Virus record (IMG/VR): IMGVR_UViG_3300048924_000586
Coordinates: 5,776-69,775 of that record
Strand: one strand, 5' to 3'
Source of the DNA: a virus
DNA length: 64,000 bases
The notes under the pieces were generated by a model, which was not told the DNA's origin, did not search any database, and was given only the letters and a program-made list of their open reading frames with translations. This document shows, piece after piece, positions 2,598 to 64,000 of this stretch (its first letter is position 1; the number at the start of each line of letters is the position of its first letter). The translations under genes and the position numbers were made by a program.

Positions 2598-2906
2598 ATG
2601 ACTAAAATCACCAGCGATCAGCTGGCGAAAATGCACGACCGTCGCCTGAGAGGCGAAAGCTGTGCCGATATCGCCAGATCCTTCGGTCTCAACGAGATGA
2701 CCGTCTACCAGCGTCTTCGTCGCGAGTTCGGCCTCGACGTCTATAAGTTTCCTCCGCCTGTTGCTGCTAACGACAACGTGCCAGGCCGAGTTCGCAAGAT
2801 GACGGCGCACAACGGCGGTTGCTCTACGCTGAGCGGCAAGATGCCGGTGACGCTTGTTCGCATCCCGACCATTGACGGTCCGGCACCAGCGCAGGTGGCA
2901 GCATGA
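2598..2906 (+). CDS. HTH DNA-binding protein in the Cro position
   Basis: GESCADIARSFGLNEMTVYQRL HTH; strong RBS; contains AANDN, ends VAA. Confidence 0.75.
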   Translation: MTKITSDQLAKMHDRRLRGESCADIARSFGLNEMTVYQRLRREFGLDVYKFPPPVAANDNVPGRVRKMTAHNGGCSTLSGKMPVTLVRIPTIDGPAPAQVAA

Positions 2907-3190
2907 GTGGCGCCTGCGATTGCGATGAATTCCACCTCGGCGACTGGGTCGAGTGCAAGCTGAATACCGATCTTTTCGGTATCGTCGTCGGCGACGCTGA
3001 TTTCGGCCGCTACGTGAACGTTCAGTTGGCCGGCTCACTCGGAACGATGCCCTTCCATGCCGTTACCCTCCGCCACATCGAGCCAAAGACCCCACCGGCG
3101 GCGGAAGACGACGACACCAACGTCGTCCACGTGGACTTCACTAAGCCACGTTCCCTGGATGCCACCACCACCACAGAAGGAGCTGCTTGA
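2903..3190 (+). CDS. Hypothetical phage protein
   Basis: ATGA-coupled to the upstream gene; ends GAA. Confidence 0.7.
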   Translation: MSGACDCDEFHLGDWVECKLNTDLFGIVVGDADFGRYVNVQLAGSLGTMPFHAVTLRHIEPKTPPAAEDDDTNVVHVDFTKPRSLDATTTTEGAA

Positions 3191-4344
3191 TGGGGAAGTT
3201 TGAAAAAGGTCAGTACGTGAGAGTGCTGCACACCGATTATGCTGAGGTTCTCGCCGTCGGCGACACTTTCAAGGTCGGCGAGGCCTATGGTCACGGCGCT
3301 GAGCCCGAGGGCGAGAACAAAGATCTGTTTTTCCTCAACCACGAACTCGAGCAGTGGGTACCGAAAGTCGGCGAGCGGGTGACGGTCAGTGCATCTGACG
3401 TGCTGGCTCACTGGAATGCGTATTGGGCGGAGACCGCCGGCGTTCGTTTGAACAAAGACGACCTCGTCTATGTGACGCAGGTCACGCCAAACTACAGTGC
3501 CGGTAAGGCTGGAATCAAGATTGCGGTGAAGGCTGGGGGAAAGGGTCCCATCTGGACGGTCGATCGGTTCAGCCCGGCTCTCGCCACCCTTACCATCGAA
3601 GCCGGCAAATTCTATAAGACGCGCGACGGCCGGAAGGTCGGGCCGGTGACGCACAACGGCTACGGTGTTTATGGGGCGCCCGGCTTCGGCGGCGCCAAAT
3701 GGTATGCAACTGGTCGCAGCTATTCGGATGAAAAGACGCTTCCCTCTGATCTCGTCGCCGAATGGGTCGACGAGCCGAAGGCCGGCAACGACAATGTCGG
3801 TATCGGGAGCCTGATCGGCAAGACAGTCACCGTCAAGATCGATAAGTCGAAGTTCAACGTCGGCGACCGTGTGAACAAAACGGACTGGCAGAGTTACAGC
3901 CCCAAAGGCTACGTCGTGACAAAGGTTGCGTCGGACGGGCTTTGGCTCGATCCCGGCAATGGAATGGCGCCGGTTCGCTACAAACTGCCAGACGACGAAT
4001 TCTGGCTGGTTCCGGCGAAGCCCGCCACCAAGCCCGCCATCGTCTGCCTCATCGAGAACGGCCAGCCCAAGCCATCCGATCGCCCGCACATCCATGCCGA
4101 CGAAGCCAAGGCCGGCAAGGAAGCCGCGCGTCTCGCGGGCGTCTATAAGGGCAAGGAGTTTGGCGTCTTCGTGCTGACCTCCAGCACGTCGCAGCCCGCG
4201 CCGGTCTACAAGCACGAATGGCAGCGCCAGGCCGCCGCCGGTAACAAGATCAGTGCGATCAAGGAACTGCGGGCCGCCAATGACCTGACGCTCAAGGGCG
4301 CCAAGGATGCCGTCGAGCACTGGCTCGACTTCATCGCCGCCTAA
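3190..4344 (+). CDS. Mosaic early protein with a C-terminal ribosomal L7/L12-CTD-like domain
   Basis: GNKISAIKELRAANDLTLKGAKDAVE resembles the L7/L12 KIxxIKxxR..LKxAK motif; ends IAA. Confidence 0.65.
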   Translation: MGKFEKGQYVRVLHTDYAEVLAVGDTFKVGEAYGHGAEPEGENKDLFFLNHELEQWVPKVGERVTVSASDVLAHWNAYWAETAGVRLNKDDLVYVTQVTPNYSAGKAGIKIAVKAGGKGPIWTVDRFSPALATLTIEAGKFYKTRDGRKVGPVTHNGYGVYGAPGFGGAKWYATGRSYSDEKTLPSDLVAEWVDEPKAGNDNVGIGSLIGKTVTVKIDKSKFNVGDRVNKTDWQSYSPKGYVVTKVASDGLWLDPGNGMAPVRYKLPDDEFWLVPAKPATKPAIVCLIENGQPKPSDRPHIHADEAKAGKEAARLAGVYKGKEFGVFVLTSSTSQPAPVYKHEWQRQAAAGNKISAIKELRAANDLTLKGAKDAVEHWLDFIAA

Positions 4345-4409
4345 ACCAACCCACCACCATCACCACAACAAGGCCGTGCGGCTCACCACCGCACGGCGAG
4401 AGGAGACCT

Positions 4410-4613
4410 ATGTCCAGACATCGCTCGACGACCAATCCCTACGCCACCAGTTTCACCCGCACGGGCAAGCTCAACATGACCAACCGCAAGCCGTACCGCA
4501 CCGCGGCTCAGCAAGCAGATGCCCGCGCCAACGCCGTCAAGGTGAACGGCACTTTCGTGTCGAACGCACCGGTCAGCTACCACCGCTCGCCGAAGAAGCA
4601 GGTGGCAGCATGA
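4410..4613 (+). CDS. Small basic hypothetical protein
   Basis: GAGAGGAG RBS after a hairpin leader; ends VAA. Confidence 0.7.
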   Translation: MSRHRSTTNPYATSFTRTGKLNMTNRKPYRTAAQQADARANAVKVNGTFVSNAPVSYHRSPKKQVAA

Positions 4614-4852
4614 GCAACGTTTTCAACAAGCTCGCCGCGCGCTAACACGCCAACGACACCAAGCTCGGCCTGCCTTCCACCGACCGCGCCCACTACGACC
4701 GCCGCAAGCACCTGATGTCGGTTTTGGCCGGTGGCAAAGGATGGCGCATCCTGGCAAAGGAGCCGGCTCGCCGGGCAGACGGCACTACGCGGGGTGAGCG
4801 CAAGCGTGCTCGTGCAGAGCAGGCCTTCGCCCATCTTCGGGTAGCAGCATGA
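4610..4852 (+). pseudogene. Small early gene interrupted by an in-frame TAA (4643-4645)
   Basis: MSNVFNKLAAR*HANDTKL...AHLRVAA; same frame, ATGA-coupled at both ends. Confidence 0.65.
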
Positions 4853-5028
4853 GCAAATCACCATGGGGCAGCCCGCCCATCACCGGCACGCCGCTCGACT
4901 ACGTGCCGATCCATGCAGAGGTCGGCAAAGGCATCGACATCCCTGACCGGCCTTCACGCATGCTCGGCTACGCCTTCGTCATAGGAGCGCTGATCATCGG
5001 CGTCCTGCTCGGCGCGGTGGCTGTCTGA
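4849..5028 (+). CDS. Small membrane protein (59 aa)
   Basis: ATGA-coupled; C-terminal hydrophobic helix; translated by hand. Confidence 0.6.
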   Translation: MSKSPWGSPPITGTPLDYVPIHAEVGKGIDIPDRPSRMLGYAFVIGALIIGVLLGAVAV

Positions 5029-5105: not shown

Positions 5106-5161
5106 CCCACCTGCGGCTGGCCACCACCAGCCGCAACCATCCCCACCACAGAGGAGACTAC

Positions 5162-6378: not shown

Positions 6379-7017
6379 ATGGCCAAGATTGGTTTCGAAT
6401 ACGAAGTCGATTTCGACAACACCGACAAGCAGGGCGGCGGCGGACTTCTGCCGAACATGTTCGCCCGCATTTGGGCTGAATCCATCGAGCTGAAGGAGAC
6501 CAATGACCAGAAGGGTCATCAGGCCGAAATCACGTTCGAGGTGCAGGAGCCGGAAGCATTCAAGGGTAAGAAGTTCTGGGCCTATTGGACGATCGTCCAC
6601 GCGGACGGCTTCAACTTCGGCCAGTACAAATACGGCAAGCCGATGTTCGACCGCCTGGCTCGCGCCGTCGAAGTCAACGTGACAGGCGACACAGACACCG
6701 ACGAGTTGCTGTTCAAGCCTTTCGTCGTCGAGATCGAGGTGCAGGAAGGCGGGCTGAAGAACGACGGAAGCGGCACCAGCTACAAGGACAAGAACCAGAT
6801 CGCGAAGTTCTTCTTCGAGGACGACGCAGCGAAAGAGCCCGTTCCGGAGCTCGGCCTGATCGGTGACGGCTCGGCAAGACGCCCGCCTTTCGGCAGCAAG
6901 GCCAAGGCACCGGCCAATGACAACCGTGCTCCTGCTGCGAACGACAACCGCTCGGCGGCCAGCGGGAAGCCCGCTGCAGCTGCTGGCGGCGCCAAAAAGA
7001 ACCCTTGGAGCAAGTAG
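6379..7017 (+). CDS. Phage ssDNA-binding protein (DUF669-like)
   Basis: Follows the Sak4-like ATPase; beta-rich core, YKDKNQI, low-complexity tail with two ANDN copies ending KKNPWSK. Confidence 0.7.
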   Translation: MAKIGFEYEVDFDNTDKQGGGGLLPNMFARIWAESIELKETNDQKGHQAEITFEVQEPEAFKGKKFWAYWTIVHADGFNFGQYKYGKPMFDRLARAVEVNVTGDTDTDELLFKPFVVEIEVQEGGLKNDGSGTSYKDKNQIAKFFFEDDAAKEPVPELGLIGDGSARRPPFGSKAKAPANDNRAPAANDNRSAASGKPAAAAGGAKKNPWSK

Positions 7018-10240: not shown

Positions 10241-10265
10241 ATTTACCACCACAGAGGAGACTGCC

Positions 10266-10703
10266 ATGACCGCATACCGCCCAGCGAATTTCGACGCACG
10301 CCTACTTTCCTACCGTCCTTTGCTTATTCGGATGGCCACAAGATACGGCGAGCCAGCCGACCGTGAAGACCTGGTGCAAAGTGCTCTCGCGCGCGCCATG
10401 GAGAAATGGTTGGATTGCCGTGATGGCTTCGCCGCATGGCTGCGGGGCGTAATGCTCGCCGAGATCCAGATGTACCGCACCGCTCGGCGGCCGCGAAAGG
10501 GTGTAGCGGCGAACGACAATACGCCCGCTACGCAGGAGGACACCGTTGCTGCCGCGCAAGCCATTAGTCGCTGCCGTAATCCAGACATCATGATTCAGGT
10601 TGGAATGGGGGCGACCATGCAGGATATCGCCGCTTCGCGCGGCATCTCCAAGCAGGCGGTAAGCGTCAAGGTGCGTGCCGACCGAGCAAGGCTGGCCGCC
10701 TGA
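10266..10703 (+). CDS. ECF-sigma-like/HTH transcriptional regulator
   Basis: DREDLVQSAL...FAAWL (region 2-like) and MQDIAASRGISKQAVS HTH; AANDN linker; ends ARLAA. Confidence 0.75.
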   Translation: MTAYRPANFDARLLSYRPLLIRMATRYGEPADREDLVQSALARAMEKWLDCRDGFAAWLRGVMLAEIQMYRTARRPRKGVAANDNTPATQEDTVAAAQAISRCRNPDIMIQVGMGATMQDIAASRGISKQAVSVKVRADRARLAA

Positions 10704-12430
10704 TGCTTGAGCTCCGATATTATCAGCGCGATTCTCTGGACGCGCTTTACAAGTATTGGGAAGAGGGCGGTGGGAATGGTCTCATCGTCCTACCGACCGG
10801 CGCGGGTAAGGCGCTCGTCATCGCAAAACTGATCGAGGAGTTGCTCGCTGACTTCCCGTCGATGCGCATCCTCAACATCACCCATGACGCCCGACTCGTT
10901 GAACAGAATTTCAAGGAGTTCATCGGGCTCGCACCGTTTGCGCCGGCTGGCATTTACTCTGCCGGCCTTAACCGTCGAGATGCCCATGCGCAGGTTCTAT
11001 TCTGCGGCATTCAGTCGGTATGGAACAAGGTTGAGCAGCTCGGCGACATCGATCTCATCATCGTCGATGAGGCGCATGGCATCTCGCGCAACGCCAACAC
11101 CCAGTATGGCAAGTTTTTTAAATCGGTCCGCAAGCACAATCCAGATAGTCGGACATGCGGCACGACGGCGACCGACTATCGTATGGATTCAGGTCGCCTG
11201 ACGGACGCGCTCGATGAGGACGATTCCCTTGATCCGATCACCGGCGAGACGGTGAAGTTCAAGCTGTTCGACGATGTTGTCTACGAGATCGGCATTGGCG
11301 AGCTTATCGAGCAGGGGTATCTCACGCGACTGACCAGCCAGAAGACCACCTCGAAAATCGATCTGAAAGGCGTCGGCACACGCGGCGGCGATTATATCCC
11401 CGGCCAAGTGTCCGAGGCCGCCGAGCAGATCATTGAGGAGGCCATCGCCGAGGACATGGCGCTTTCAGAGGGCAGGCGGGCTGGGCTGTTCTTCAGCACC
11501 AGCAAGGAAAACGCGCAGCATATCGCTGACGCGATTAATCGATATGGCCGCAGGTGCGCCGTCCTGACCAGCGATAATGCCCACCAGACGAAGGAGATCT
11601 TCGAGAAATTCAAGTCCGGCTACTATTGGGCAATCTCGTCGGTGAGCATGATCACGACCGGCACCAACTTCCCGTGGGTGGACTTCATTTCGCTGATCCT
11701 GTCGACGAAGTCGGCCGGAAAACTGGTGCAGATCCTCGGTCGCGGCACTCGCAATTTTCCCGGCAAGACAGACTGCCTGGTCGCAGACCACGGCAAGAAC
11801 CTCGCCTATCACGGCCCGATCGACCAGATCCGGCCGCGCGAGCCTGGCAAGGGGTTGGGTGACCAGCCGAAGAAGCTGTGCCCGCAGGACAAGCCGGACA
11901 TTCAAGGCAAGTGCGGTTGTGGCGAGCTTATCGCCATCTCGATCATGGAATGCCAGTGCTGCGGCTATATCTTCCCGCCGAATGAGGAGGAGAAGATCAC
12001 GGCGAAAGCAGACCTCACGCCAGTGCTTTCAACGGAGAAGCCGTGGCACGAGGTTTCATCTCGTTCCTTCTTCCACCATCCGGGCAAGGAGGGGAAACCC
12101 GATTCCGTCAAGGTGACATACCTTGTCGGGATGAAGTCGGTGAACGAGTGGATCTGCTGCGCTCACTCCGGCTTTCCGAAGTCCAAGGCTAACCGCTGGT
12201 GGATGACCCACGGCGGGAAGACGCCATATCCGAATGACGTCATCGAGTTCCTTGAACGTCAGCATGAGTTGATGGACACTACCGAGGTTCAGCTCGATTA
12301 CGGCCGAAACCCGAAATATCCGGATATCGCGGCCCACCGCGTCGCGCCGGCGAATGATAATCACGAGCCTGCGGCGAACGATAACCGACGGCGACCGGCT
12401 TGGATGGATGAGGAGGATATTCCGTTCTGA
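10703..12430 (+). CDS. SF2 DEAH helicase (RadD/YejH-like)
   Basis: LRYYQ, PTGAGK, DEAH, TAT, QILGRGTR, Zn-finger; tail with two ANDN copies and DEEDIPF. Confidence 0.92.
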   Translation: MLELRYYQRDSLDALYKYWEEGGGNGLIVLPTGAGKALVIAKLIEELLADFPSMRILNITHDARLVEQNFKEFIGLAPFAPAGIYSAGLNRRDAHAQVLFCGIQSVWNKVEQLGDIDLIIVDEAHGISRNANTQYGKFFKSVRKHNPDSRTCGTTATDYRMDSGRLTDALDEDDSLDPITGETVKFKLFDDVVYEIGIGELIEQGYLTRLTSQKTTSKIDLKGVGTRGGDYIPGQVSEAAEQIIEEAIAEDMALSEGRRAGLFFSTSKENAQHIADAINRYGRRCAVLTSDNAHQTKEIFEKFKSGYYWAISSVSMITTGTNFPWVDFISLILSTKSAGKLVQILGRGTRNFPGKTDCLVADHGKNLAYHGPIDQIRPREPGKGLGDQPKKLCPQDKPDIQGKCGCGELIAISIMECQCCGYIFPPNEEEKITAKADLTPVLSTEKPWHEVSSRSFFHHPGKEGKPDSVKVTYLVGMKSVNEWICCAHSGFPKSKANRWWMTHGGKTPYPNDVIEFLERQHELMDTTEVQLDYGRNPKYPDIAAHRVAPANDNHEPAANDNRRRPAWMDEEDIPF

Positions 12431-12518: not shown

Positions 12519-13292
12519 ATGACTAGAAGACAGGCGGAACCAGCTTTCGACCCATTTGCCATCGCGACAGGCCATAACGGCGGTCCGCCGCTCGATGACG
12601 AGCCCGCGAACGACAACGAGCCCGCCTACGTCGCCATCTTTACCGAGATCGACGACCTCTATGGAGAGGCCAAGAACTGGGCCGACGGCGATGCCATCTC
12701 CAGTCAGGAGATGCACGACCAGATCGAGAAGCTGTATACCGGTCTGCACGAGGCGGGTAAACGCGCGGACGATCTGCGCGTCGAGGAAAAGAAGCCGCTC
12801 GACGACCAAGTGAAGGCGATCCAAGATCGTTACAATCCCTACATCCAGCCGAAAAAGGGCAAGGTCGACCGCGCAAAGGCGTCGCTCGGCGAACTGCTGG
12901 CCCCATGGCGCAAAAAGCTTGCCGACGACAAGGCCGCCGAAGCCGCGAAGAAAGCCGCAGAGGCAGCGGCGGCCACAAAGGCGGCCGAGGATGCGATCCG
13001 CTCGTCATCCGGCAATCTTGGTGCGCGCGAATACGCCGAGGAGCTGCTCGCCGACGCGAAGAAGCTGGAGCGCGGCGCGAAGCGTGCGGACAAAGCCGCA
13101 ACCACCGGCTTGGGGTTGCGGTCGGTCTGGAACGTGAACATCGCCGACGAGACGAAGGCGCTGGACTGGGCGTTCGAGCATGCGCCAGGCGAGTTCATGG
13201 CAATGGCGCTGTCGCTGGCCGAAGAGCAGGTTCGAAAGGGTGTGCGCTCGATCGAGGGATTCTCGATCGTTGAGGACAAGGTGGCTCGTTAG
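12519..13292 (+). CDS. Coiled-coil hypothetical phage protein
   Basis: Leader hairpin and RBS; GHNGGPP motif, PANDN. Confidence 0.8.
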   Translation: MTRRQAEPAFDPFAIATGHNGGPPLDDEPANDNEPAYVAIFTEIDDLYGEAKNWADGDAISSQEMHDQIEKLYTGLHEAGKRADDLRVEEKKPLDDQVKAIQDRYNPYIQPKKGKVDRAKASLGELLAPWRKKLADDKAAEAAKKAAEAAAATKAAEDAIRSSSGNLGAREYAEELLADAKKLERGAKRADKAATTGLGLRSVWNVNIADETKALDWAFEHAPGEFMAMALSLAEEQVRKGVRSIEGFSIVEDKVAR

Positions 13293-14164: not shown

Positions 14165-14982
14165 TGGCGAAACTCACCAAAGCACAAGCGAAGGCTCACG
14201 CGCAGGCGTGTGACCTGCTGACGAAGCCGGTCCTGACAGAAGAAGACAAGGACTTCGTTCTCAAGAACTGGAACGAAGGCGCCAACCACGTCAACGGCGC
14301 GGCCGGCGCGTTCTTCACGCCATACGATATGGCGTTCGATTTCACGATCGACGCCATTGGGCAGGGCGGTTACGGCGGCCGGATCATTGATCTTTGCGCG
14401 GGGATCGGCATGCTCTCTTATGCCTGTTGGCATCGCAGCCACCAGAAGGCGCGCATCACCTGCGTCGAGCGCAATCCAGACTACCTCTCTGTTGGGCAGA
14501 AGATCCTGCCAGAGGCGGAGTGGATCCTTGCTGACGTGCTGGACGTGATCGACATGGACCTCGGTCGTTTTGACGTGGCCATCAGCAATCCGCCGTTCGG
14601 CGCGATCAAGCGGGAGAAGAACGCTCCGCGGTATTCGGGCAAGGACTTCGAGTTCCACGTTATCGATATCGCGGCGCATCTCGCGCGCGAAGGCGCGTTC
14701 ATCGTCCCGCAGATGTCGGCCGGTTTCAACTTCAGTGGCGGCGGCCACTACCGGCGGCAAAAGGACGGCAAAGCAGTCAAATTTCAGGAGTTGACCGGCC
14801 TTCACTTCGAGGCAGGCTGCGGCATCGACACCAACTTCTACATCAACGATTGGAAAGGCGTGTCGCCCATGTGCGAGATCGTGTGCGTGGACTTCGGGCC
14901 GGAGAATCAGGCTGTTGAAGCTGTGGTCCCGGCCAATGACAATGTGCCTGCTCAGGCGGACTTGTTCGGGGCTGCGGCATGA
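14164..14982 (+). CDS. N6-adenine DNA methyltransferase
   Basis: AFFTP, IIDLCAGIG, ISNPPF; tail PANDNVPAQADLFGAAA. Confidence 0.88.
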   Translation: MAKLTKAQAKAHAQACDLLTKPVLTEEDKDFVLKNWNEGANHVNGAAGAFFTPYDMAFDFTIDAIGQGGYGGRIIDLCAGIGMLSYACWHRSHQKARITCVERNPDYLSVGQKILPEAEWILADVLDVIDMDLGRFDVAISNPPFGAIKREKNAPRYSGKDFEFHVIDIAAHLAREGAFIVPQMSAGFNFSGGGHYRRQKDGKAVKFQELTGLHFEAGCGIDTNFYINDWKGVSPMCEIVCVDFGPENQAVEAVVPANDNVPAQADLFGAAA

Positions 14983-16315: not shown

Positions 16316-17947
16316 ATGACGATTCATTTCGCGCCGGATCCCGCACGCCCGCTCATCATCGACAGCTTCGCCGGCGGCGGCGGCGCATCCACCGGCATCG
16401 AGCTTGCCCTCGGCCGCTCGCCGGACATCGCCGTCAACCACAATCCGGCGGCGCTGGCGCTGCATGCGGCCAACCATCCCGAAACGCTCCACCTGTCGGA
16501 GAACGTATACAAGGTGGATCCGCTTGATTACCTGCGCCGCAGACACGTCGGCCTCGCCTGGTTCTCGCCAGACTGCAAGCACTTCTCGAAGGCAAAGGGC
16601 GGTAAGCCGGTCGAGCGCAACATCCGCGACCTCTGCTGGATCATTCCCGGCTGGATCGAGCGCATCCAGAAGAGCGGCGGGAAGGTCGACGTCGTCATCA
16701 TGGAGAACGTCGAGGAGTTCAAGGATTACGGCCCGCTGATGCAGACCGAGCGTGGCCTGATGCCAGATCCAGAGCGCAAGGGCGAGACCTTCAAGGACTG
16801 GTGCAAGAAGCTGCGCAAACTCGGTGGCAAGATCGAGTTCCGCGAGCTGCGTGCCTGCGACTATGGTGCGCCGACGATCCGTAAGCGCCTATTCGTCATC
16901 GTCCGGTTCGATGGTAAGCCGATCGTGTGGCCGCAGCCCACGCATGCCAAGCCGACCGATGTGGATGTCATCGCTGGCCGCAAGCTGGCATGGCGCACGG
17001 CGGCCGAGTGCATTGACTGGAGCCTGCCTTGCCCGTCAATCTTTGACACCTCGGAGCAAGTGATGGCTCGCCATGGTCTTCGAGCTGTTCGTCCGCTGGC
17101 CGACGCCACCATGTCGCGTGTTGCACGCGGGATGAAGCGTTATGTGCTGGATGCGGAGCGGCCGTTTTTGGTGAACCTGACGCACGGCGGCCGAGTCGAA
17201 GACATAGCCGAGCCTGCACGCACGATTACGGGTGCCCATCGTGGGGAGAAAGCACTGGTTTCTCCGCATCTTTCGGCTTTTTATGGTGTGGGCAAGGGCG
17301 GCAATGATCGCGCAGCGTCTGCGGACGAGCCCATGTCGACAGTCACCGCCACCGGTGCGCAGCAGGGCGTTGTCTCGGCGTTCGTCTCCCGCCAGTTCGG
17401 CGCTTCGGTTGGCCACGGCATTGAAGAGCCATCGGCGACGGTAACCGCAGGCGTCAACAAGTCGGCTCTCGTCGCACCTTACCTGCAGGCTTATTACGGC
17501 ACCGGTGACGGTGGCGAGGAGAACCAGCCAGCACGAACCATCACGACGAAGGACCGGCACGGCCATGTCGAGGCCAGCCTCAGTGTGCCGCCATTCACAG
17601 CCGATCAGGAGGCTCGCGCTCGCGAAGTTGCGGACTTCATGCGCGAGCATGGCTTCTGGGACGATCGTGAATTTGTCACGCTAACCGTTGGCGCCGACAC
17701 TTTTGTCATCGTCGACATTGGCATGCGCATGCTCACGCCCCGCGAGCTATACAACGCGCAGGGTTTCCCGTCCGATTACCGGATCGACGAGGATGCCGAC
17801 GGCAATGCGTTCCCGAAGTCGGTTCAGGTCAGCTGCGTCGGCAACTCGGTGTCTCCACCGGTGGCGCGTGCGCTGGTCGCGGCCAACTGCGGACACTTGG
17901 CTGCGGCGAATGACAATGTCAGCGCTGTGTCTCTTCGCGCCGCTTGA
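16316..17947 (+). CDS. C5-cytosine DNA methyltransferase
   Basis: DSFAGGGG, SPDCKHFS, MENV, YGAPTIRKR, RMLTPRE..AQGFP, GNSV. Confidence 0.96.
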   Translation: MTIHFAPDPARPLIIDSFAGGGGASTGIELALGRSPDIAVNHNPAALALHAANHPETLHLSENVYKVDPLDYLRRRHVGLAWFSPDCKHFSKAKGGKPVERNIRDLCWIIPGWIERIQKSGGKVDVVIMENVEEFKDYGPLMQTERGLMPDPERKGETFKDWCKKLRKLGGKIEFRELRACDYGAPTIRKRLFVIVRFDGKPIVWPQPTHAKPTDVDVIAGRKLAWRTAAECIDWSLPCPSIFDTSEQVMARHGLRAVRPLADATMSRVARGMKRYVLDAERPFLVNLTHGGRVEDIAEPARTITGAHRGEKALVSPHLSAFYGVGKGGNDRAASADEPMSTVTATGAQQGVVSAFVSRQFGASVGHGIEEPSATVTAGVNKSALVAPYLQAYYGTGDGGEENQPARTITTKDRHGHVEASLSVPPFTADQEARAREVADFMREHGFWDDREFVTLTVGADTFVIVDIGMRMLTPRELYNAQGFPSDYRIDEDADGNAFPKSVQVSCVGNSVSPPVARALVAANCGHLAAANDNVSAVSLRAA

Positions 17948-18107: not shown

Positions 18108-18128
18108 GCCGGTACCTCCGGAGGGTTT

Positions 18129-21474: not shown

Positions 21475-21996
21475 ATGGCAAAAATCCCCACACAGAGAAC
21501 CACGCAGACCACGCGCTACCAAGGCCGGAAGGTTCGCATCATCACCACGACATCCTCGACAGGCACGAAGGTCACCGTGACGGATGCGCCGGTCGAAGAA
21601 TGGATCTTGCAGGCCGCCGCTGTCGCCGCACTCAAAAACATGCCGGAATACGCTGGCGACGCCGACAAGGTGGCTGCCAACGACAACGCAGGACGGCCGA
21701 GCTTCACTCTTGCAGCAGACATGAACGGCGATAATCGAAGCCGACAGGCTGCCCTGAAGGCAACGGCGACGGGCATTGCGGCCGGTGATCCTGATCTCCG
21801 CATCTACCTGCCCAACGGCGTTCTCAAGCTGATCGAATACAAGAATGCCGAGGGCGTACTCACTAAGAGCCAGCGCATTCGTCACCCGCTTCTTTTCCGT
21901 CTCGGCCATCCGGTCGTTACTCTCAAGGTAGCGAGCAAGGAAGAGGCGGCGGCAAGGACGGTCGAGCTGGTTCGAAACTGGCTAGCTGTTGCTTGA
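21475..21996 (+). CDS. VRR-NUC-like nuclease
   Basis: EWILQ, GIAAGDPDL, IEYK...SQ. Confidence 0.8.
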   Translation: MAKIPTQRTTQTTRYQGRKVRIITTTSSTGTKVTVTDAPVEEWILQAAAVAALKNMPEYAGDADKVAANDNAGRPSFTLAADMNGDNRSRQAALKATATGIAAGDPDLRIYLPNGVLKLIEYKNAEGVLTKSQRIRHPLLFRLGHPVVTLKVASKEEAAARTVELVRNWLAVA

Positions 21997-47764: not shown

Positions 47765-48922
47765 ATGCACCCGCGTATTGAGGTTACGGTCGACGGCACA
47801 CCGGTGGCAGGCGCTTTCTATGAGCGTCTTGTTTCCATAACGGTGACGGACAAGGAAGGGGCTCAGGCCGACACTGTCGACATCGAGTTGAACGATGGGC
47901 CGCCGAACTTCCTTGCCTTGCCACGCACCGGCGCCATCATAGATGTGCGGCTCGGCTACGGGCAGATGAGAAGCCTCGGCAAGTTCACTGTCGACAAGGT
48001 CACTCCCAAGTGCCTGCCCTATAGTATGTCGATCTCTGGTAAGTCCGCCGACCTTCGCAGCAAGAAGCTCAAGGAGAGGCAGGAGCGCCACTGGGATAAG
48101 AAAAAGGTGAAGGACATCGTTGACGAGGTCGCAAAAGAGAGCGGCCTCGAAGCCTCGGTGGATGCGGAGATCGGTGACCACGAATATGAGTGGTTCTCAC
48201 AGCAGGACGAATCCAACATCCACTTTCTGCGGCGGCTGGCAGAACGGCATAATGCCCTTTTCTCAGTGAAGCAGGGTAGGGTGATCTTCTCGAAGCAAGG
48301 CTCCGGCAATTCAGCGTCCGGCCAGTTTATCGGCTCGGTCGTTGTTTCGCCTTCGAAGATCATCCAAGGCACTTGTAGTTTCGAGGCCAACGACCGCACC
48401 AAGTATTCGAAGGTCGTCGCCTACTATCAGGACAGCGACAAGGCACAGCGCGTCGAGATCGAGGCAGATGGTGATGCAGATGGCGATAGCGTCTTCCGCA
48501 TTCCAGAGCCGTTCGCCAGCGTCAAGGAGGCAGACAAAGCCGCCCAGTCGAAGGCGAAAGCCCTCAAGCGAGGCGAGGGGGCTGCATCAGTCACCGTGGT
48601 CGGTGATACGGCCATCATCGCAGGAGCTCCGCTCCTCTTTGAGGATGTGAGGCCGGGCCTCGACGGCGTCCCTTACGTCATCGACACGGCGACCCACACC
48701 TACCGGAAGACCGAAGGTTATCGCACGGCAATCAGCGCGAAGCTGTACGATGGAAAGTCTGGCGGGAGCAAGAAGTCGGCCGCTAACGACAACGATCCGG
48801 ACAGCACCTCGGAGACCAGCAAGTCGGAAGACAAGGTCGCACCAAATGCGCCCGCAGGAACGCCGGCTACCCCATCTGAATGGACGGGGCAGCGACGTTA
48901 CGGTCGAACGGACGAGAACTAG
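47765..48922 (+). CDS. Late control/baseplate hub gpD-like protein
   Basis: TDKEG.QAD, LGY, Q.DES..HFL.RLA; tail with AANDN. Confidence 0.92.
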   Translation: MHPRIEVTVDGTPVAGAFYERLVSITVTDKEGAQADTVDIELNDGPPNFLALPRTGAIIDVRLGYGQMRSLGKFTVDKVTPKCLPYSMSISGKSADLRSKKLKERQERHWDKKKVKDIVDEVAKESGLEASVDAEIGDHEYEWFSQQDESNIHFLRRLAERHNALFSVKQGRVIFSKQGSGNSASGQFIGSVVVSPSKIIQGTCSFEANDRTKYSKVVAYYQDSDKAQRVEIEADGDADGDSVFRIPEPFASVKEADKAAQSKAKALKRGEGAASVTVVGDTAIIAGAPLLFEDVRPGLDGVPYVIDTATHTYRKTEGYRTAISAKLYDGKSGGSKKSAANDNDPDSTSETSKSEDKVAPNAPAGTPATPSEWTGQRRYGRTDEN

Positions 48923-56075: not shown

Positions 56076-57328
56076 AAACCAGCCCAGAAGAACTGCAGCG
56101 CAGAGCGGACGCCTATCGCGAGCACGGAACGCTCGTAAAGGCGGCCGCCGCGCTCGGCATCAAGAAGTCGGCACTGCACGACAGCATCAAGCGAGCCGCC
56201 GAGGTTGGTCTGCTCGGCACAAAGCCGGTGTTGCCAGGCTTCGCCATAAAGTCTATTGCGAGCAAGGACGGCGACGCATGGATCAAGCAGACGAAAGCTC
56301 CGGGTGAGGTGTTCGAGCTCCCCGTAGGCCAGGTTGTCAAAGGCGTGTCGGCTCTCGTTGATGGGCAGGGCAGGGAAGTCGCCAAGTGGATTAAGACGGC
56401 CGCAGACGCAGAAAACCAGCTTGCCGCAATGCGCGCCGCAGTCGAGGCCTTCAAGGAAGACATTCCTCGGGCTGAGCCGGTGGCGGCTCCGATCTATTTC
56501 GAGGACGATCTTCTCTGCCAATACACCATCACCGATGCCCACCTCGGCGCTCTTGCTTGGAATGAGGAGACTGGATCGGGAGATTACGACCTGTCGATCG
56601 GAGAGAAGCTCGTGATGGACTGGTTCGCGTCGGCTATCTCAGTAGCGCCGGCTGCTCGTCGTGCCGTGTTCGCGCAGCTCGGCGATTTCCTCCACTACGA
56701 TTCGTTCAAGAGCGTCACGCCAGAGCACGGTCACCTTCTGGACGGCGACACCCGCTATCCGAAAATGGTCCGTGCCGCGATCCGGATAGTCCGACGCGTC
56801 ATCGGTCTGCTGCTACTCAAGCACGAGCGCGTCGACATCATTATGGCCGATGCGAACCACGACCCCTCAAGTGAGGTCTGGCTGCGCGAGATGCTGGCTG
56901 CGTTCTATGAGGACGAGCCTCGCATCACCGTCGACACGAGCCCCGGCACCTACTCCATGATCGAGCATGGCGCCGTCACGCTCTTCTATCATCACGGTCA
57001 TCGCCGTGGCGTCGGCAACGTCGACTCGGTCTTCGTCGGGAAATTCCGAGAGGCATACGGCAGGACACGGTTCAGCTATGCGCACGTCGGCCATAAGCAC
57101 TCTGACGAACTCAAGACCACCAACCTCATGAAGGTCGAGCAGCACGAGACGCTCGCCGCGCCAGATGCCTACGCGGCGAATGGTGGCTGGCTTTCGGGTC
57201 GATCGGCAAAAGTCATCTTCTACCACAAGCAGGCTGGCGAGGTCGGTCGTAGCGTCATGACGCCGGAAATGGTTGCGGGCAAGTATGCAGCTGCCAACGA
57301 CAACGTGCCTGCGAAGGCGGCGGCGTGA
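56072..57328 (+). CDS. HTH plus calcineurin-like metallophosphoesterase
   Basis: TDAH.G, GDFLH, ANHD, HHGH, GHKH; ends AANDNVPAKAAA. Confidence 0.88.
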   Translation: MKTSPEELQRRADAYREHGTLVKAAAALGIKKSALHDSIKRAAEVGLLGTKPVLPGFAIKSIASKDGDAWIKQTKAPGEVFELPVGQVVKGVSALVDGQGREVAKWIKTAADAENQLAAMRAAVEAFKEDIPRAEPVAAPIYFEDDLLCQYTITDAHLGALAWNEETGSGDYDLSIGEKLVMDWFASAISVAPAARRAVFAQLGDFLHYDSFKSVTPEHGHLLDGDTRYPKMVRAAIRIVRRVIGLLLLKHERVDIIMADANHDPSSEVWLREMLAAFYEDEPRITVDTSPGTYSMIEHGAVTLFYHHGHRRGVGNVDSVFVGKFREAYGRTRFSYAHVGHKHSDELKTTNLMKVEQHETLAAPDAYAANGGWLSGRSAKVIFYHKQAGEVGRSVMTPEMVAGKYAAANDNVPAKAAA

Positions 57329-57885
57329 GGAAGGTCAGCGTTTGTTCGGTCGACGGGTGTGAAAATCCCGTCGGCAGGACCGGTGGCCTAGGGTGTTGCC
57401 GAAAGCACTATCGGCGCATGAGGGCGCACGGTGATCCTCTCGCTGGTAGTACCGAAAAAGGAGCCGCCAAGACGTTCGTAGAGGAAGCGGCGCTGTCCGA
57501 GGCTGGTGAATGCGTCATCTTCCCGTTCTTCCGCAACAAGGAGGGCTACGGTCGATTGAACTTGGACAGCGGCCGATATGTTGGGGCGCATTTCTACGCG
57601 TGCGAGATCCGGAATGGATCGCGTCCATCGAGCGAGCACGAAGCAAGGCACTCGTGCGGCAATGGGCATGAGGGATGCGTGAACGGCAGCCACCTTTCTT
57701 GGGGCACTCGCAAAGAGAACGTAGCGGATGCGATCAAACACGGCACAGCGATGTTCTGGGGCGTCCCGGTGTCGTCCTACGGCGCGTTTCGATCATCTAT
57801 CGGTGGACGCGTGGATACCGCCGATGTCAAGGAATGGCTCGCCGCCAATGACAACGTGCCGACGGAGCAGAGGAGGGTGGCCTAA
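57325..57885 (+). CDS. HNH/His-Cys-box endonuclease
   Basis: CSVDGC..C.KHY.R, GYG, AH, RHSCGN...CVN..HL.WGT..EN. Confidence 0.85.
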   Translation: MRKVSVCSVDGCENPVGRTGGLGCCRKHYRRMRAHGDPLAGSTEKGAAKTFVEEAALSEAGECVIFPFFRNKEGYGRLNLDSGRYVGAHFYACEIRNGSRPSSEHEARHSCGNGHEGCVNGSHLSWGTRKENVADAIKHGTAMFWGVPVSSYGAFRSSIGGRVDTADVKEWLAANDNVPTEQRRVA

Positions 57886-58246: not shown

Positions 58247-58870
58247 ATGGAAATCGTAGGAAAACTGAGAAACGCGCGCCGCTTAGGCTTCATTGAAGAT
58301 CCGCGCGGGCCTTGCCTTTACGGGCAGGTCTATGGCGACACCAAGGGCCGGTTCCGTGATGGTGAGTACATCACGACCAGTAGAATCCAAAGCGAAGAGG
58401 GCGACGTCTTCAAAACGCGTTACAGTGCGTATCGTGTCGAGCATTGGGAAGGCCAGCCTGTCGATCCACCAGTTTCCGCCAACGACAACCAGGCGCCTGC
58501 CTACACCCACGCCGCCGCCATTAACATCTTCGCAGCCGACTGCCACGCACGCAGCCGTGCTGCTGGCTGGTACACCGACCTCGCCACCGGCAAGACGCTC
58601 GATCGCAACGTGCCGGAGATGCTTTGCCTGATCCATTCCGAGATCAGCGAGGCCATGGAAGGATTCCGCAAAAAGCTGCAGGACGACAAGCTGCCGCACC
58701 GGAAGATGATGGAGGTCGAACTTGCCGACGCCATGATCCGCATCGGCGACCTAGCAACGTTCATGGGCTACGACCTCGGCGGCGCGATCGTCGAGAAGAT
58801 GGCCTACAATGACAAGCGGGAAGATCACAAGATCGAGAACCGGCTCAAGGCTGGCGGGAAGGGCTTCTGA
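58247..58870 (+). CDS. MazG-like NTP pyrophosphohydrolase with an extra N-terminal domain
   Basis: LIHSEISEAMEG.RK, ELAD..IRI.D, EKM.YN..R; SANDN in the linker. Confidence 0.85.
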   Translation: MEIVGKLRNARRLGFIEDPRGPCLYGQVYGDTKGRFRDGEYITTSRIQSEEGDVFKTRYSAYRVEHWEGQPVDPPVSANDNQAPAYTHAAAINIFAADCHARSRAAGWYTDLATGKTLDRNVPEMLCLIHSEISEAMEGFRKKLQDDKLPHRKMMEVELADAMIRIGDLATFMGYDLGGAIVEKMAYNDKREDHKIENRLKAGGKGF

Positions 58871-59043: not shown

Positions 59044-59582
59044 TGGAGCTCCACCAGCTTATGGAAATGGGAGAGGTGGCCACCACCACCTTCGCACCGC
59101 TCGACAAGTACGTCGCTGCGAACGACAACCATCAGGGTGGTCGCTACATCGGTCTCCGCCGGCAGACGCTGCCAGTAGCCGAGCGCGTCACTGTTACGCT
59201 CGACGACCTGTCCGGCCTGTCCGGCTACATTTACCTCGGCTCGCCGTATTCGAAGTACGCGCAGGGCCTAGACGTTGCGGCGAAGATCGTTGCGGAAAGC
59301 GCGGCCATCCTTATGCGTCGCGGCCTCGTCGTCTTCTCGCCGATCGCACATGGCCACGTCGTCGCCAATGACGGCGGACTTCCCGCGCTCGATTGGACGT
59401 TCTGGCAGCGCCAGTGCGACCCACTCGTCGATGCGTCGGCTGCGCTCGTCGTGCTGCAGATGGAAGGCTGGTGGGAATCGGTCGGTCTCGAATACGAGAT
59501 CAAACGGTTCAGGGATTCGGGCAAGCCGATCGTTTATTTGCCGCCGGCGGCGCTGGGCGTGTGGGAGAGGCGGGCAGCATGA
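59043..59582 (+). CDS. DUF1937 / nucleoside deoxyribosyltransferase-like protein
   Basis: IYLGSPYS, FSPIAHGH, GW.ES.G...EI, GKPI. Confidence 0.8.
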   Translation: MELHQLMEMGEVATTTFAPLDKYVAANDNHQGGRYIGLRRQTLPVAERVTVTLDDLSGLSGYIYLGSPYSKYAQGLDVAAKIVAESAAILMRRGLVVFSPIAHGHVVANDGGLPALDWTFWQRQCDPLVDASAALVVLQMEGWWESVGLEYEIKRFRDSGKPIVYLPPAALGVWERRAA

Positions 59583-60776: not shown

Positions 60777-61462
60777 CTATCGAATCACAGGACAACGGCT
60801 GCATCACCGCAGTTCCCACCGAATTGCGCGCGCTTGGCGCGAGAATCGGGAAGGTGGATCGCCACTATTACGACGATGCTGAAGACTTTGCCTATGGGAC
60901 TGGCCGCTACGCCAGGCAGCCCGCCAACGACAACCTCCCGCCGATCGTAGCCTTCACCGGCCCGGCTGGCAGCGGCAAGTCCACTGCGACCGGCTACCTG
61001 ATCGACGTTCATGGCTACACGCTTGTGAAGTTCGCAGGACCGCTGAAGGACATGATGCGGGCGGTAGGCCTGAGTGAACGGGAGATTGAAGGCGACCTCA
61101 AGGAGAAACCGAGTTATCTGCTCTGCGGCAAGACGCCGAGGCACGCCATGCAGACCTTAGGCACCGAGTGGGGCCGTGACATCCTCGGCATTGACTTCTG
61201 GATCCGGCTTTGGCGCGCTCGTGTCGAGCAGGCGGCATCGGAGGGCAAGCGCGTCGTCGTCGACGACCTGCGGTTCCCCAATGAAGCGAAGGCCATCCGG
61301 CAGCTGGGCGGCGATATCTACCGCCTGACTGGGCGAGGGGGAATTGTCGGCGAGCACATCTCTGAACGCGGCTGCGGTGACGAGGACCTTGTCATCGCGA
61401 ACGACAACTCGCCTGACGCGCTCTACAACAAGGTCGAGGACGCGTTGCGGCGTTATGGGTGA
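60773..61462 (+). CDS. Deoxynucleoside monophosphate kinase
   Basis: GPAGSGKST, FAGPLK, TPR..MQ.LGTEWGR, DLRFPNE, H.SE. Confidence 0.92.
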   Translation: MTIESQDNGCITAVPTELRALGARIGKVDRHYYDDAEDFAYGTGRYARQPANDNLPPIVAFTGPAGSGKSTATGYLIDVHGYTLVKFAGPLKDMMRAVGLSEREIEGDLKEKPSYLLCGKTPRHAMQTLGTEWGRDILGIDFWIRLWRARVEQAASEGKRVVVDDLRFPNEAKAIRQLGGDIYRLTGRGGIVGEHISERGCGDEDLVIANDNSPDALYNKVEDALRRYG

Positions 61463-61527: not shown

Positions 61528-61534
61528 CCTATGG

Positions 61535-61782: not shown

Positions 61783-61814
61783 AAAAGCACGTCGAGGAAT
61801 CGACGTGCTTTTTT
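61783..61814. terminator. Bidirectional intrinsic terminator-like hairpin
   Basis: AAAAGCACGTCGA-GGAA-TCGACGTGCTTTT. Confidence 0.75.
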
Positions 61815-62040
61815 ATGCCCGAATCAATCCGGCATTGCAAGCGGTTAACGCACCATTAATTTCGGGAAATTCTCTATGAGGGGCGTTATACACCCCTTAG
61901 TGCAACTGTCAATCTGACTAACCGGTCAAATTGACCATTATTTTGCAGTCTCGCTACAAGTTGGTTGCATTATTTCACATACAAGCCGCGGCACTAGAGC
62001 CAGCTGCGCGTGCTTGGCAATTTCAGTTCTGCCGCCCATT

Positions 62041-62313
62041 CTACATGAAGCTGAGATGCTCCACCGCCTTTAGTCGAGGCGCCAACACTGATGCAGGCAT
62101 CTGCATATTTGAAGTGCCGAACGGCGACCTTGTGATCCAAACCGAGTACATCTCACACCCGCCGGGTGTGCGACTGCGATCAAGGATCATTCCGAAGATG
62201 TGGCCACCGCATCGCACTGACGCGCCGACCTCGAATTTCCATGACGCAATATAGACGCGCCGTCTGCGCGTGGGTGATTCTGGGTATGCGACTTCTCGTA
62301 TGCGGTTATGCAT
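62041..62313 (-). CDS. Hypothetical protein
   Basis: ORF with GAAGGG upstream; no recognised motif. Confidence 0.4.
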   Translation of the reverse strand: MHNRIREVAYPESPTRRRRVYIASWKFEVGASVRCGGHIFGMILDRSRTPGGCEMYSVWITRSPFGTSNMQMPASVLAPRLKAVEHLSFM

Positions 62314-62638
62314 TGCCGTTCCCTTCAGCGAGGCGATCGGCGCCTCGAGCCGGGAGTTGATAACACGCTGTTTAGACGAGCCGACGCGCCTTTAGGCCGA
62401 AGCCTTGGACATTTCCGTGCTTGCACACTCGGCACGCAGAAGCGTGCGACGCATCGCTCCCGGCCCATTGAATGAGCCGAGGCGCACGCCAGCCGCTAAG
62501 CTGCGCAGGGGTTCGGAGCGCAAAATGCGCACCTATAAACAGTCAGGGTTATCAAGCCCGCAGTGGTTATAGATGTATTAAAGCAGGACGCAATATGCGA
62601 AATTCAATGGGTGGTTGTTTGGGGGTGTACCAATACCG

Positions 62639-64000
62639 TCATACCTCTTCCTTAATCCAACTGACATTCAGCTTTATTTCGTTCAGAAATTCCTGCCGGC
62701 GCTTCATTTCCGCTCCGTCGCCATAGGTCGGGCGGCCGAATTCGTGACCCATAAGGTCAGCCTGCATACGATCGGAGGCGCTAGCGTTTTCGATACGGTC
62801 TTGAAAGGTGTGCCGCAGACTGTAGGCCGTGTGCCTCTTTGTCGGGCGCAGTTTGTTCTTACTCAGGATCTTGTTGATGATAGCCGAAGCCGAGTCAGCC
62901 TTGTCCGCATAGCGCGGAAAGCCGCCGGGGCGTTGCTTCATCGCCCACAGGGCGATGCCCACAAGCGGAATGCGTCGGATCGAGTGGTCGGTCTTCTGGC
63001 GCCTGTCGGTGCGCTCAGCGACTTCGACGTGAGGCGTGGCGTCGTCCAGGCGGATATCCTGCGGGCGAAGATTGCAAACCTCCCCGAGGCGCATACCGGT
63101 TTCAGCCATCGTGTAGATGATAAACCGGGCGTCCTCATTCAGATTGTCGAGCGCGCCAGCGGCCAGCAACTTGTCTTGCAGGAAGTCCACCGAGAACGGA
63201 ATGCGCTTGTCGAGCTTCGTCGCATTCGTCTCCTTCAGACGGATCTTGTCCCAAGCCAGCCGATAGTTCGTATGCAGCGCATCGTCGATGACCGTAAGCA
63301 TGCCCTTGAGATCGCTGAAGCTCCGGTTGGCCGTGTAGGCCTTCAGGCTTTCTTTCTTCTCGCCAGCGGCCGTCTGAGCGCCCTTGGCGATCTTCTCAAC
63401 CCACCAGTCGCGGAACCGCAAAACGTCGTTGCGAGTTACCTGTCGCCAAGGCTGGTCGCCGAGCAGGTCTTGCAGATAGGCGATAGCGCGCTCACGTGAG
63501 GTCTTGTGTTTGTCCAGCTGCCTCGGCGACATGCCGGTAAGGCCGGCTTTGTTGTGCTTCTCGTATAGCTTCCACGTGTCACTGATCTTGGGGTCGGGGT
63601 CTGGCGCTGTACCGGTGACGCCTTGGACGACGGAAACACTCGTTTCAAGGTACCGTTCGCCAATGGCCATTCGCTCGCGGAACTCATCTAGCGGCACTGT
63701 CGCAACTTCCTGCACGGACCGATACGTGAAGCCGAGAGACTGAGCATCTTTCACTGCGCGCTCATATTGCTCGATCGTATTGGCGTTGTCGTTGCCGGCT
63801 GAGATAGTTCGCCAGAGATGCGTTGTCGCCTTGTGAATAGCATCAGCGCGCTCCAGGGCGTCTTTCAGCGACTTCGTCTTCAGGCTCTTCTTGAGGTGAG
63901 GGGCGCCGCCTGTTTTTTCTAAAACCTCCTGCGGCACGCGTCGATAGTATCGGTAGATGCCGTTCGGCTGCCGCTGAACGTATTTCGATATGTCATCCAT
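62639..64000 (-). CDS. int: Tyrosine recombinase / phage integrase (DUF6538-type N-terminus)
   Basis: Y.YYRRVP..KSLKT; TGMRLGEV, K, YSLRHTF.DR, LMGH, Y; ATG at the window edge, so the true start could lie beyond. Confidence 0.95.
   Translation of the reverse strand: MDDISKYVQRQPNGIYRYYRRVPQEVLEKTGGAPHLKKSLKTKSLKDALERADAIHKATTHLWRTISAGNDNANTIEQYERAVKDAQSLGFTYRSVQEVATVPLDEFRERMAIGERYLETSVSVVQGVTGTAPDPDPKISDTWKLYEKHNKAGLTGMSPRQLDKHKTSRERAIAYLQDLLGDQPWRQVTRNDVLRFRDWWVEKIAKGAQTAAGEKKESLKAYTANRSFSDLKGMLTVIDDALHTNYRLAWDKIRLKETNATKLDKRIPFSVDFLQDKLLAAGALDNLNEDARFIIYTMAETGMRLGEVCNLRPQDIRLDDATPHVEVAERTDRRQKTDHSIRRIPLVGIALWAMKQRPGGFPRYADKADSASAIINKILSKNKLRPTKRHTAYSLRHTFQDRIENASASDRMQADLMGHEFGRPTYGDGAEMKRRQEFLNEIKLNVSWIKEEV

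Follow-up and report, generated by a model that had tools for sequence, protein, structure and literature searches.

A tetrapeptide identical to the head of the host ssrA tag recurs in the proteins of a temperate rhizobial phage and may act as a degron mimic

We analyzed a 64,000-nt stretch of DNA (the window; ~59% G+C) that makes up most of the 69,775-bp provirus record IMGVR_UViG_3300048924_000586 of the IMG/VR database, and that belongs to a temperate phage of rhizobia in the group of phage 16-3. The subject is the tetrapeptide ANDN, which also forms the head of the ssrA tag encoded by transfer-messenger RNA (tmRNA) in hosts of related prophages, and which a six-frame translation of the window yielded 22 times. 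Number and places agree with an initial annotation made by a model from the letters, the coordinates of which lay one codon upstream. Twenty-one copies are on the + strand, each in the frame of a long open reading frame (ORF), and are spread over 17 genes. The 22nd is on the - strand (57891-57902), inside an antisense ORF of 85 aa (57882-58139) found in the gap between two + strand genes, six residues ahead of its stop; it could be a chance copy or part of a small real gene. As this ORF had no PHROG family match, the carriers amount to 17 proteins plus one doubtful ORF and not to the 18 proteins counted initially. The genome outside the window holds one further ANDN, in the tail AANDNGQQRRRAA of a - strand gene, bringing the total to 23. 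The variants AGNDN, ADNDN and VNDN listed with the initial count were found as well, and the fourth, PANDE, sits in a small antisense ORF.

The leftmost carrier is a helix-turn-helix (HTH, Cro-like) protein of 102 aa (2598-2906) that ends VAA and has its ANDN at residue 57 (2766..2777, + strand, as are all copies described from here on), past the HTH domain (residues 16-47). A 212-aa protein (6379-7017) bears a tandem ANDN-x4-ANDN (6913..6948, residues 179 and 187) in a low-complexity tail. It had been named SSB, a name that we dropped given that it has no Pfam match and falls into phrog_2300, a family of unknown function; the gene at its position in Rhizobium phage RHph_X2_25, directly upstream of the beta-clamp gene, is annotated DUF669, a match in position only. 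In the sigma-70-like protein (10047-10703), which ends LAA, ANDN (10509..10520, residue 155) comes directly past region 2 (88-148) in a lineage-specific insertion, and is found in 3 of 11 homologues. The DEAD/ResIII helicase (10703-12430) has a second tandem ANDN-x4-ANDN (12350..12385, residues 550 and 558 of 575), placed in a C-terminal tail that lies outside the part common to other phages' helicases and ends DEEDIPF. An exonuclease (12519-13292) carries the motif at residue 30 (12606..12617) within an N-terminal insertion ahead of its PHROG match (33-256), and 3 of 21 homologues have it.

Two methyltransferases end in complete look-alikes of an ssrA tag: the tail ANDNVPAQADLFGAAA (16 aa, 14932..14979) of the methyltransferase at 14164-14982, and the tail ANDNVSAVSLRAA (13 aa, 17906..17944) of the C5 cytosine methyltransferase at 16316-17947. 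The Prim-Pol/DUF3987 primase (18102-20459) has ANDN at residue 769 of 785 (20406..20417) in a 17-aa tail ending WVG. A nuclease-like protein of 173 aa (21475-21996) carries it at residue 68 (21676..21687) in a variable loop that is missing from many homologues, the exact motif being present in 1 of 34; its initial name, VRR-NUC, goes back solely to the annotation of the same-position gene in RHph_X2_25. The 316-aa product of 22442-23392, of unknown function, has two copies, one at residue 48 (22583..22594), where the predicted local distance difference test (pLDDT) is <50, and one in its 18-aa C-terminus ANDNFAEALDLARYAKSA (23336..23389), which ends Ser-Ala. This second copy falls into a terminal helix that AlphaFold predicts with confidence (pLDDT 83-89), and hence it may have a partly structural role. 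The naming of this protein as a late regulator found no support: its PHROG family is an unknown one, and its model, poor overall (mean pLDDT 51), gave no Foldseek match in the PDB at E ≤0.001, the best nonsignificant rows being sigma factors.

In the right part of the window, the gpA-type large terminase (26681-28807) has ANDN at residue 688 of 708 (28742..28753) in a proline-rich tail past the nuclease domain (339-644), and the gpD-like tail/baseplate protein (47765-48922) has it at residue 340 of 385 (48782..48793), past the domain at 86-314. The latter is the only one of the 21 copies found in the virion module (28.8-56 kb). The SbcD-like DNA repair exonuclease (55997-57328; PHROG match 26-426) ends in the complete tag-like tail ANDNVPAKAAA (11 aa, 57293..57325), and the HNH endonuclease (57325-57885) in the tag-like tail ANDNVPTEQRRVA (13 aa, 57844..57882). 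The copy of the MazG-like pyrophosphatase (58130-58870) is at residue 117 (58478..58489), probably in a linker, as it falls between sub-matches at 60-103 and 126-233. The DUF1937 protein (58809-59582), which ends RAA, carries ANDN at residue 104 (59118..59129) ahead of its domain (140-242). Finally, the dNMP kinase (60773-61462) has one copy directly ahead of the P-loop (60923..60934, residue 51) and another within the DNMK domain match at 123-220 (61397..61408, residue 209), which may be a structural or a chance copy. The carriers are thus replication, DNA-modification, nuclease, nucleotide-metabolism, packaging-enzyme and regulatory proteins. Apart from the names discussed above, those given initially agree with Pfam and PHROG (HTH, sigma-70 region 2, helicase, two methyltransferases, Prim-Pol primase, gpA-type TerL, gpD, HNH, DUF1937, dNMP kinase, SbcD-like exonuclease and pyrophosphatase).

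Twelve of the 21 copies are ≤34 residues from the C-terminus, at least 13 lie outside Pfam or PHROG domain matches, and alignments place several others in lineage-specific insertions. The initial statement that the motif sits mostly in linkers or tails fails for two copies, those in the last helix of the 22442 product and in the DNMK domain.

The number of copies is far from what composition predicts. The expectation was 0.12 ANDN per 20,574 residues, or 0.19 against 22 observed when all six-frame ORFs of ≥100 aa were taken, in keeping with the earlier estimate of well under one chance copy. ANDN is by far the most over-represented tetrapeptide of the genome. Its 23 copies compare with 0-2 for each of the remaining 11 orderings of A, N, D and N, and the counts of one-letter neighbours such as ANEN, ANDE and GNDN are 0-2 as well. 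The expected counts and the permutation counts together ruled out chance or composition as the source. On a smaller scale, YKFV and KFVK occur four times each in the window genome and in RHph_X2_25 (0.06-0.13 expected), probably from paralogous homing or HNH endonucleases.

Related loci were found through the primase, 25 of them in IMG/VR and 10 in bacterial genomes, at identities of 55-87%; some loci of the two collections look like the same prophage. The bacterial genomes were of Rhizobium, Mesorhizobium, Pseudaminobacter and Pseudohoeflea, with a Xanthobacteraceae metagenome-assembled genome and one labelled only Proteobacteria. These 35 loci (719 kb) hold 221 ANDN, all on the primase-coding strand, with 0-21 occurrences of the other permutations; the most distant relatives have few (0, 1, 1 and 3).

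At the DNA level, the copies read GCN AAY GAY AAY and variation is restricted to the wobble positions. AAC is used in 14/21 and 15/21 copies, against a background of 0.67 in the same genes, and the Ala codon, mostly GCC or GCG, is also used as in the background of these genes. All + strand copies are within ORFs and in the proper frame. With wobble usage at background frequency and all + strand copies in the coding frame (21/21), ANDN is selected at the peptide level and not as a DNA site, as the initial annotation had claimed; the equal frequency out of frame or between genes that would have spoken against the claim was looked for, and the count was 0/21. A nucleic-acid signal, whether a DNA site (for packaging, recombination, methylation or uptake) or an mRNA element GCNAAYGAYAAY that translates incidentally as ANDN, would account for the occurrence of all copies but one on a single strand, as is the case for polar DNA motifs. 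A DNA site would have defined bases, ignore the reading frame and also occur between genes; here the variable positions are all wobble positions, and the relatives have 221/221 copies on the coding strand. We regard a nucleic-acid signal as extremely improbable and close to refuted already, and we rejected a DNA site because of the reading frames, the strand and the wobble usage. A recent origin by copying from ssrA was rejected as well, since two host ssrA genes use GCAAACGACAAC and the GCA start is seen in only 1/21 window copies, and since the flanks are unrelated. Trans-translation, where the tag is supplied by tmRNA, does not describe these copies either: they are in-frame parts of ORFs with codons unlike those of host ssrA, and no tmRNA gene was found in the phage.

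Conservation among the relatives differs from carrier to carrier. Of the two ANDN in the helicase tail, the first is kept exactly in 24/32 homologues and the second in 15/32, and the flanks vary freely. The variants found there (DNDN, SNDN, GNDN, TNDN and CNDN) differ at the first residue, which leaves NDN as the core. In the 22442 gene, ANDN is kept in 12/16 homologues at residue 48 and in 14/16 at the C-terminus, among invariant or nearly invariant columns, and most of these homologues end AA 14 residues past the first Ala of the C-terminal motif. The primase tail has the exact motif in 11/36, with SNDN, DNDN, ANSN or unrelated residues in the others, the closest relative included. Insertions that most homologues lack hold the motif of the sigma-like protein, of the exonuclease and of the 21475 gene. 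Conservation in the helicase and the 22442 gene and lineage-specific insertions elsewhere point to repeated gain and loss of ANDN, as one would expect if a short linear motif comes and goes easily and is retained by selection where present.

The closest named phage is Rhizobium phage RHph_X2_25, with 81% helicase identity and 20 ANDN. An IMG/VR locus reached via the tandem motif was 100% identical to Rhizobium phage 16-3, the 60,195-bp record of which has 18 motif matches and none for the reversed-pattern control; four of these matches are reverse-strand copies, all within one 1.4-kb stretch (32072-33436). Two ANDN eight residues apart were found in at least 118 IMG/VR stretches. Among the matches listed, those at 55-61% G+C were mostly helicase tails ending ..D[DE][IV]PF or 6379-type tails, those at low G+C were simple repeats, and a group at 64-68% G+C was a different protein, probably a structural one.

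As controls, we took four phages that have the helicase or the terminase in common with this one, namely Rhodobacter phages RcSpartan and RcKemmy, Brucella phage Wb and Pseudomonas phage LPPA15. No ANDN was found in their ORFs of ≥80 aa, and none had a comparable tetrapeptide outlier. The DNA pattern gave 1, 0, 1 and 0 matches, both of them out of frame or antisense to annotated genes. Judged from these sequences, the ANDN device characterizes certain temperate phages of rhizobia, along with elements close to them; as to a link with temperate versus lytic lifestyle, only four control phages give a hint of it. A scan of IMG/VR with the seven-residue head of the enterobacterial tag returned at least 120 stretches, nearly all reading ANDENYALAA and then a stop. 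Such sequences probably stem from ssrA genes of the hosts next to prophages, by far the most likely source, and say nothing on parallel mimicry in enterobacterial phages.

The host side was read from five genomes that carry related prophages. ARAGORN gave the tags ANDNNAKGYALAA, ANDNYAEARLAA (in three genomes) and ANDNNAKGYAVAA, each from an alpha-type tmRNA, and ANDN is formed by the first four encoded tag residues in 5/5, bearing out the likeness to the tag head that had been pointed out initially. SspB (PF04386) and the ClpX zinc finger (PF06689) were also found in 5/5, and the C-terminal residues of SspB are invariant in four of these hosts. No SspB encoded by the phage was found. The sspB gene is 150-250 bp from the tmRNA gene in 4/5 of these rhizobial genomes and ~3 kb from it in the fifth, and ssrA-sspB is thus a conserved neighbourhood. 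For Caulobacter, an extract of PMC9393093 prints the tag as AANDNFAEEFAVAA and describes an ssrA-tagged protein that was degraded so fast that slowing it down needed deletion of sspB, which shows that the adaptor matters in an alphaproteobacterium.

A comparison with the host, as proposed in the initial annotation, was made at the DNA level in two genomes, and it showed the motif to be prophage-specific. In the 5.1-Mb genome G001, 19 of 38 matches to the DNA pattern are within the ~74-kb prophage (reversed-pattern control, 9), and in the 8.4-Mb genome G003, 17 of 64 are within the ~70-kb prophage (control, 6). Relative to the rest of the genome, the prophage is thus enriched in the motif roughly 70-fold in G001 and about 45-fold in G003, and one further match per genome is ssrA itself. 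Genome G003 also has other small clusters of in-frame ANDN (L046, at C1:3118-3127 kb, L048 and L052) in ORFs unrelated to this phage. They include a 405-aa ORF ending ANDNRSKLDNAA and N-terminal copies in ORFs of 554 and 561 aa, the same kind of N- and C-terminal placement as in the phage, and other mobile elements of the host thus appear to use the motif. The clusters are probably other prophages or mobile elements.

The geometry of the copies was counted in filtered ORFs of the window genome and the 35 related loci. ANDN is 11-18 residues from the stop in 63 of 145 cases (mode 13) and ≥60 residues away in 37, and native tags are 12-13 residues long as printed by ARAGORN, or 13-14 with the tmRNA-borne Ala. 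Among 85 distinct tails of ≤22 residues, 38 end Ala-Ala and 54 end Ala, versus 146 and 400 of 2308 other ORFs under the same filter; the helicase class contributes 11 distinct tails ending PF. In the window, 6/17 carriers end Ala-Ala and three more x-Ala, and a crude gene call has 19/93 genes with Ala-Ala ends, of which a single one belongs to the virion module. The arrangement of the native tag, with Ala-Ala at the native distance from the head, is found in a subset of copies, including four window tails that end Ala-Ala or Val-Ala, and is missing for about half of the window copies. Upstream, the residue before ANDN is A in 106 and P in 63 of 211 distinct contexts, the Ala being as in the real tag, and the consensus over these contexts is [A/P]-A-N-D-N-x-[P/A], with P 74 times and A 29 times at the last position.

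Some tails hold more than one short motif. In the methyltransferase tail of 14164-14982 (14944-14979), a clamp-binding-like QADLF stands between ANDN and AAA, and the corresponding tails of the relatives have ..DLF.. or ..LFG.., often between ANDN and Ala-Ala. The phage encodes a beta sliding clamp of its own (7967-9025, with three Pfam clamp domains). DLF-type motifs, ANDN and Ala-Ala in the same tails indicate that several short motifs are stacked there. The helicase C-terminus (12386-12427) has, in addition, an acidic tip D-[DE]-[DE]-I/V-P-F that is kept in nearly all relatives and that we take to resemble the extreme C-terminus of bacterial SSB; on this tail, a hub motif may have been mimicked a second time.

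We also predicted a complex between SspB and the last 35 residues of the SbcD-like exonuclease, with the tail ANDNVPAKAAA. The SspB part (residues 1-125) was that of the host whose prophage is most closely related, and the SspBs of four hosts were supplied as an alignment. The score was 0.39 (runs of 0.39, 0.41 and 0.36), versus 0.01 for the best of three controls, with contact agreement of at least 66% between runs and a partner pLDDT of at least 50. The score mark that it passes is reached by 58/80 solved complexes and 2/110 mismatched pairs, and at ≤0.60 it is reached by only 7 of those 80 complexes and by both of the mismatched pairs that passed. Among solved structures, the Agrobacterium homologue 2NYS and Caulobacter SspB (2QAS and 2QAZ) match the rhizobial SspB. 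The pass may thus reflect memory, as Caulobacter SspB structures had already been solved, and the prediction gives weak support that speaks of likeness and not of binding.

Taken together, these observations favor a model where ANDN would be a modular mimic of the host ssrA degron that ties the lifetime of its carriers to SspB-ClpXP, and we give this model a probability of roughly 0.6. The phage family would have re-evolved the motif repeatedly in disordered tails, N-terminal extensions and linkers of nonvirion proteins, copying the invariant head of the tmRNA tag, the part that alphaproteobacterial SspB reads. Tails in which 11-18 residues separate ANDN from a C-terminal Ala-Ala would imitate a complete ssrA tag over their whole length: SspB would tether the carrier to ClpX, the Ala-Ala end would be engaged by ClpXP, and the carrier would be degraded like a tmRNA-tagged protein. 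Internal copies, of whose carriers six still end Ala-Ala, might serve as tethering sites, let the carrier be delivered by another of its ends, or act as competitors for the adaptor. In all likelihood, the purpose would be that proteins which could do harm (replication proteins, DNA-modifying enzymes, nucleases and regulators) stay short-lived, or below threshold, unless they are strongly expressed. The initial reading of ANDN as an SspB-docking motif is partly supported, as regards peptide selection, the host tag head, the presence of SspB and ClpX, prophage specificity, conservation in the family and Ala-Ala tails of native length.

Several points weigh against the degron model. About half of the window copies are >22 residues from the C-terminus and 11/17 proteins do not end Ala-Ala; given these distances and ends, simple tag mimicry is insufficient for the distant copies and for the proteins with other ends. 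Two copies lie in folded elements, the terminal helix of the 22442 product and the DNMK domain. The +1 residue is variable and Pro is common at +2 (74/211), in contrast to Ala in host tags. Neither the two Rhodobacter phages nor the Brucella phage has an in-frame ANDN, and the tags of their hosts presumably start the same way, so the device is not general to alphaproteobacterial phages. The tags and SspB discussed here come from the hosts of relatives and not from the window's own host, and the complex prediction is weak. Lastly, the helicase and the 6379 product have two ANDN each, yet they end in other conserved motifs (IPF and PW..K), which fits docking or titration better than degradation.

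This last point leads to a different role, in which the motif would mainly occupy SspB and abundant double-copy carriers without Ala-Ala, such as the 6379 product and the helicase, would be sponges. Such jamming of the adaptor would, at high expression, slow the degradation that SspB assists, either of host proteins tagged by tmRNA or of phage proteins that end Ala-Ala. It would explain the fixed spacing of the tandem ANDN-x4-ANDN in two families with other ends, which recurs in the IMG/VR stretches counted above (≥118, most of them at 55-61% G+C), as well as the copies far from any C-terminus, about half of those in the window. A pure decoy would, however, have no need for Ala-Ala at the distance of the native tag, and 38/85 distinct short tails have it. 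We consider jamming as the main role unlikely, even if jamming and turnover are not mutually exclusive.

The flanks suggest a further alternative, that ANDN is a docking or processing site for a phage hub, a peptidase or another host protein and that its likeness to the tag is convergent or incidental. Pro-rich flanks and variable +1 residues are unlike native tags, and the further short motifs in the tails (QADLF, DEEDIPF) could make them general docking platforms; the relative RHph_X2_25 encodes a trypsin-like peptidase. On the other hand, ANDN is the exact invariant tag head in each of the five host genomes, the tails agree with the native tag in length and in their Ala-Ala ends, further ORF clusters in genome G003 carry the motif too, and no candidate partner was identified in the phage. 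A partner other than SspB is, in our view, quite improbable.

Turnover and titration could also be combined. We tentatively propose, as a possibility that is more doubtful than not, that the ANDN copies form a proteome-wide dosage switch on one host adaptor, the carriers being cleared at low expression and becoming jointly stable once the adaptor is saturated. In a leaky lysogen, or just after the choice of lysogeny, SspB-ClpXP would clear every regulator, nuclease, methylase and replication protein that bears the motif. Once lytic expression is at its full level, the adaptor would be saturated by the large number of copies, with the double copies on abundant proteins that lack Ala-Ala contributing most. 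Such a switch would provide a large group of rhizobial temperate phages and mobile elements with a shared, titratable threshold between lysis and lysogeny, and would disturb host quality control as a side effect.

The closest known parallels each share a part of this arrangement. Compared with the native alphaproteobacterial ssrA tag, the phage tails have the identical (A)ANDN head, are of the same length range and frequently end Ala-Ala. They differ in that the motif is encoded in the gene and not added by trans-translation, the middle part is unrelated with Pro frequent at +2, many copies are internal or N-terminal, and the codons are not those of ssrA. Mycobacteriophage BPs and its relatives reportedly use a hard-coded ssrA-like C-terminal tag on a regulator in integration-dependent immunity. 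There too a phage gene has a built-in C-terminal degron of the ssrA type and a host protease sets the protein level, but only one or two regulators are concerned, at the C-terminal end only, and the tag is removed by integration, whereas here the adaptor-binding head of the tag recurs in 17 proteins of one phage and is kept family-wide. Phage lambda has several unstable proteins, O being degraded by ClpXP, N and Xis by Lon, and CII by FtsH. It is likewise a temperate phage that keeps early regulators and replication proteins short-lived through host proteases; unlike the single portable motif in many proteins described here, it has a different signal and protease for each protein.

The logic that internal ANDN copies would need, an adaptor-binding peptide that is separate from the ClpX degron and delivers the protein to ClpXP, is known from E. 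coli RseA, a natural non-ssrA substrate with an SspB-binding motif (Flynn et al. 2004, as cited in an extract of PMC5587285), and from engineered SspB-dependent tags (extract of PMC3064785). Those cases are single host proteins or laboratory constructs. The SspB-binding motif of RseA is moreover said to be unlike the ssrA head. In the open full text of PMC and bioRxiv that we searched, neither ANDN nor mimicry of the tag head was found described for rhizobial phages, in line with the initial statement that no description was known at genome scale. The reading of ANDN as a putative tag mimic is well supported by the sequence comparisons, and the signal would be of a known kind, at a scale for which the open literature searched has no description.

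If the motif works as proposed, a temperate phage group that includes phage 16-3 would control about a fifth to a quarter of its proteins by one four-residue signal borrowed from the ribosome-rescue tag of the host, and this would be the first natural mimicry of an adaptor motif at proteome scale. SspB-ClpXP would then join the host hubs that phages reach through short linear motifs, and ANDN would offer a simple handle for tuning protein lifetime in rhizobia. The case also indicates that short linear motifs in phage proteomes are detectable from sequence statistics alone.

A few further observations were made on the window and its relatives. Between the 22442 gene and the packaging genes, a two-gene block (23959-25286) has a third-position G+C of 0.49 and 0.53, versus ~0.7 elsewhere, and has neither ANDN nor Ala-Ala ends; it is probably a recently acquired moron. 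In three relatives (L001, at 2667-5240, L015 and L016), the helicase ORFs are 937-951 aa, that is, ~370 residues longer, and the extra part has a ..GAMLGDGSL.. stretch like that of a LAGLIDADG homing endonuclease or intein, with two ANDN of its own. In RHph_X2_25 (record position 53393), ANDN is at residue 23 of the stop-to-stop frame that holds the annotated major capsid protein, an N-terminal part that we take to be, in capsids of the HK97 type, the scaffold-like piece removed by the prohead protease.

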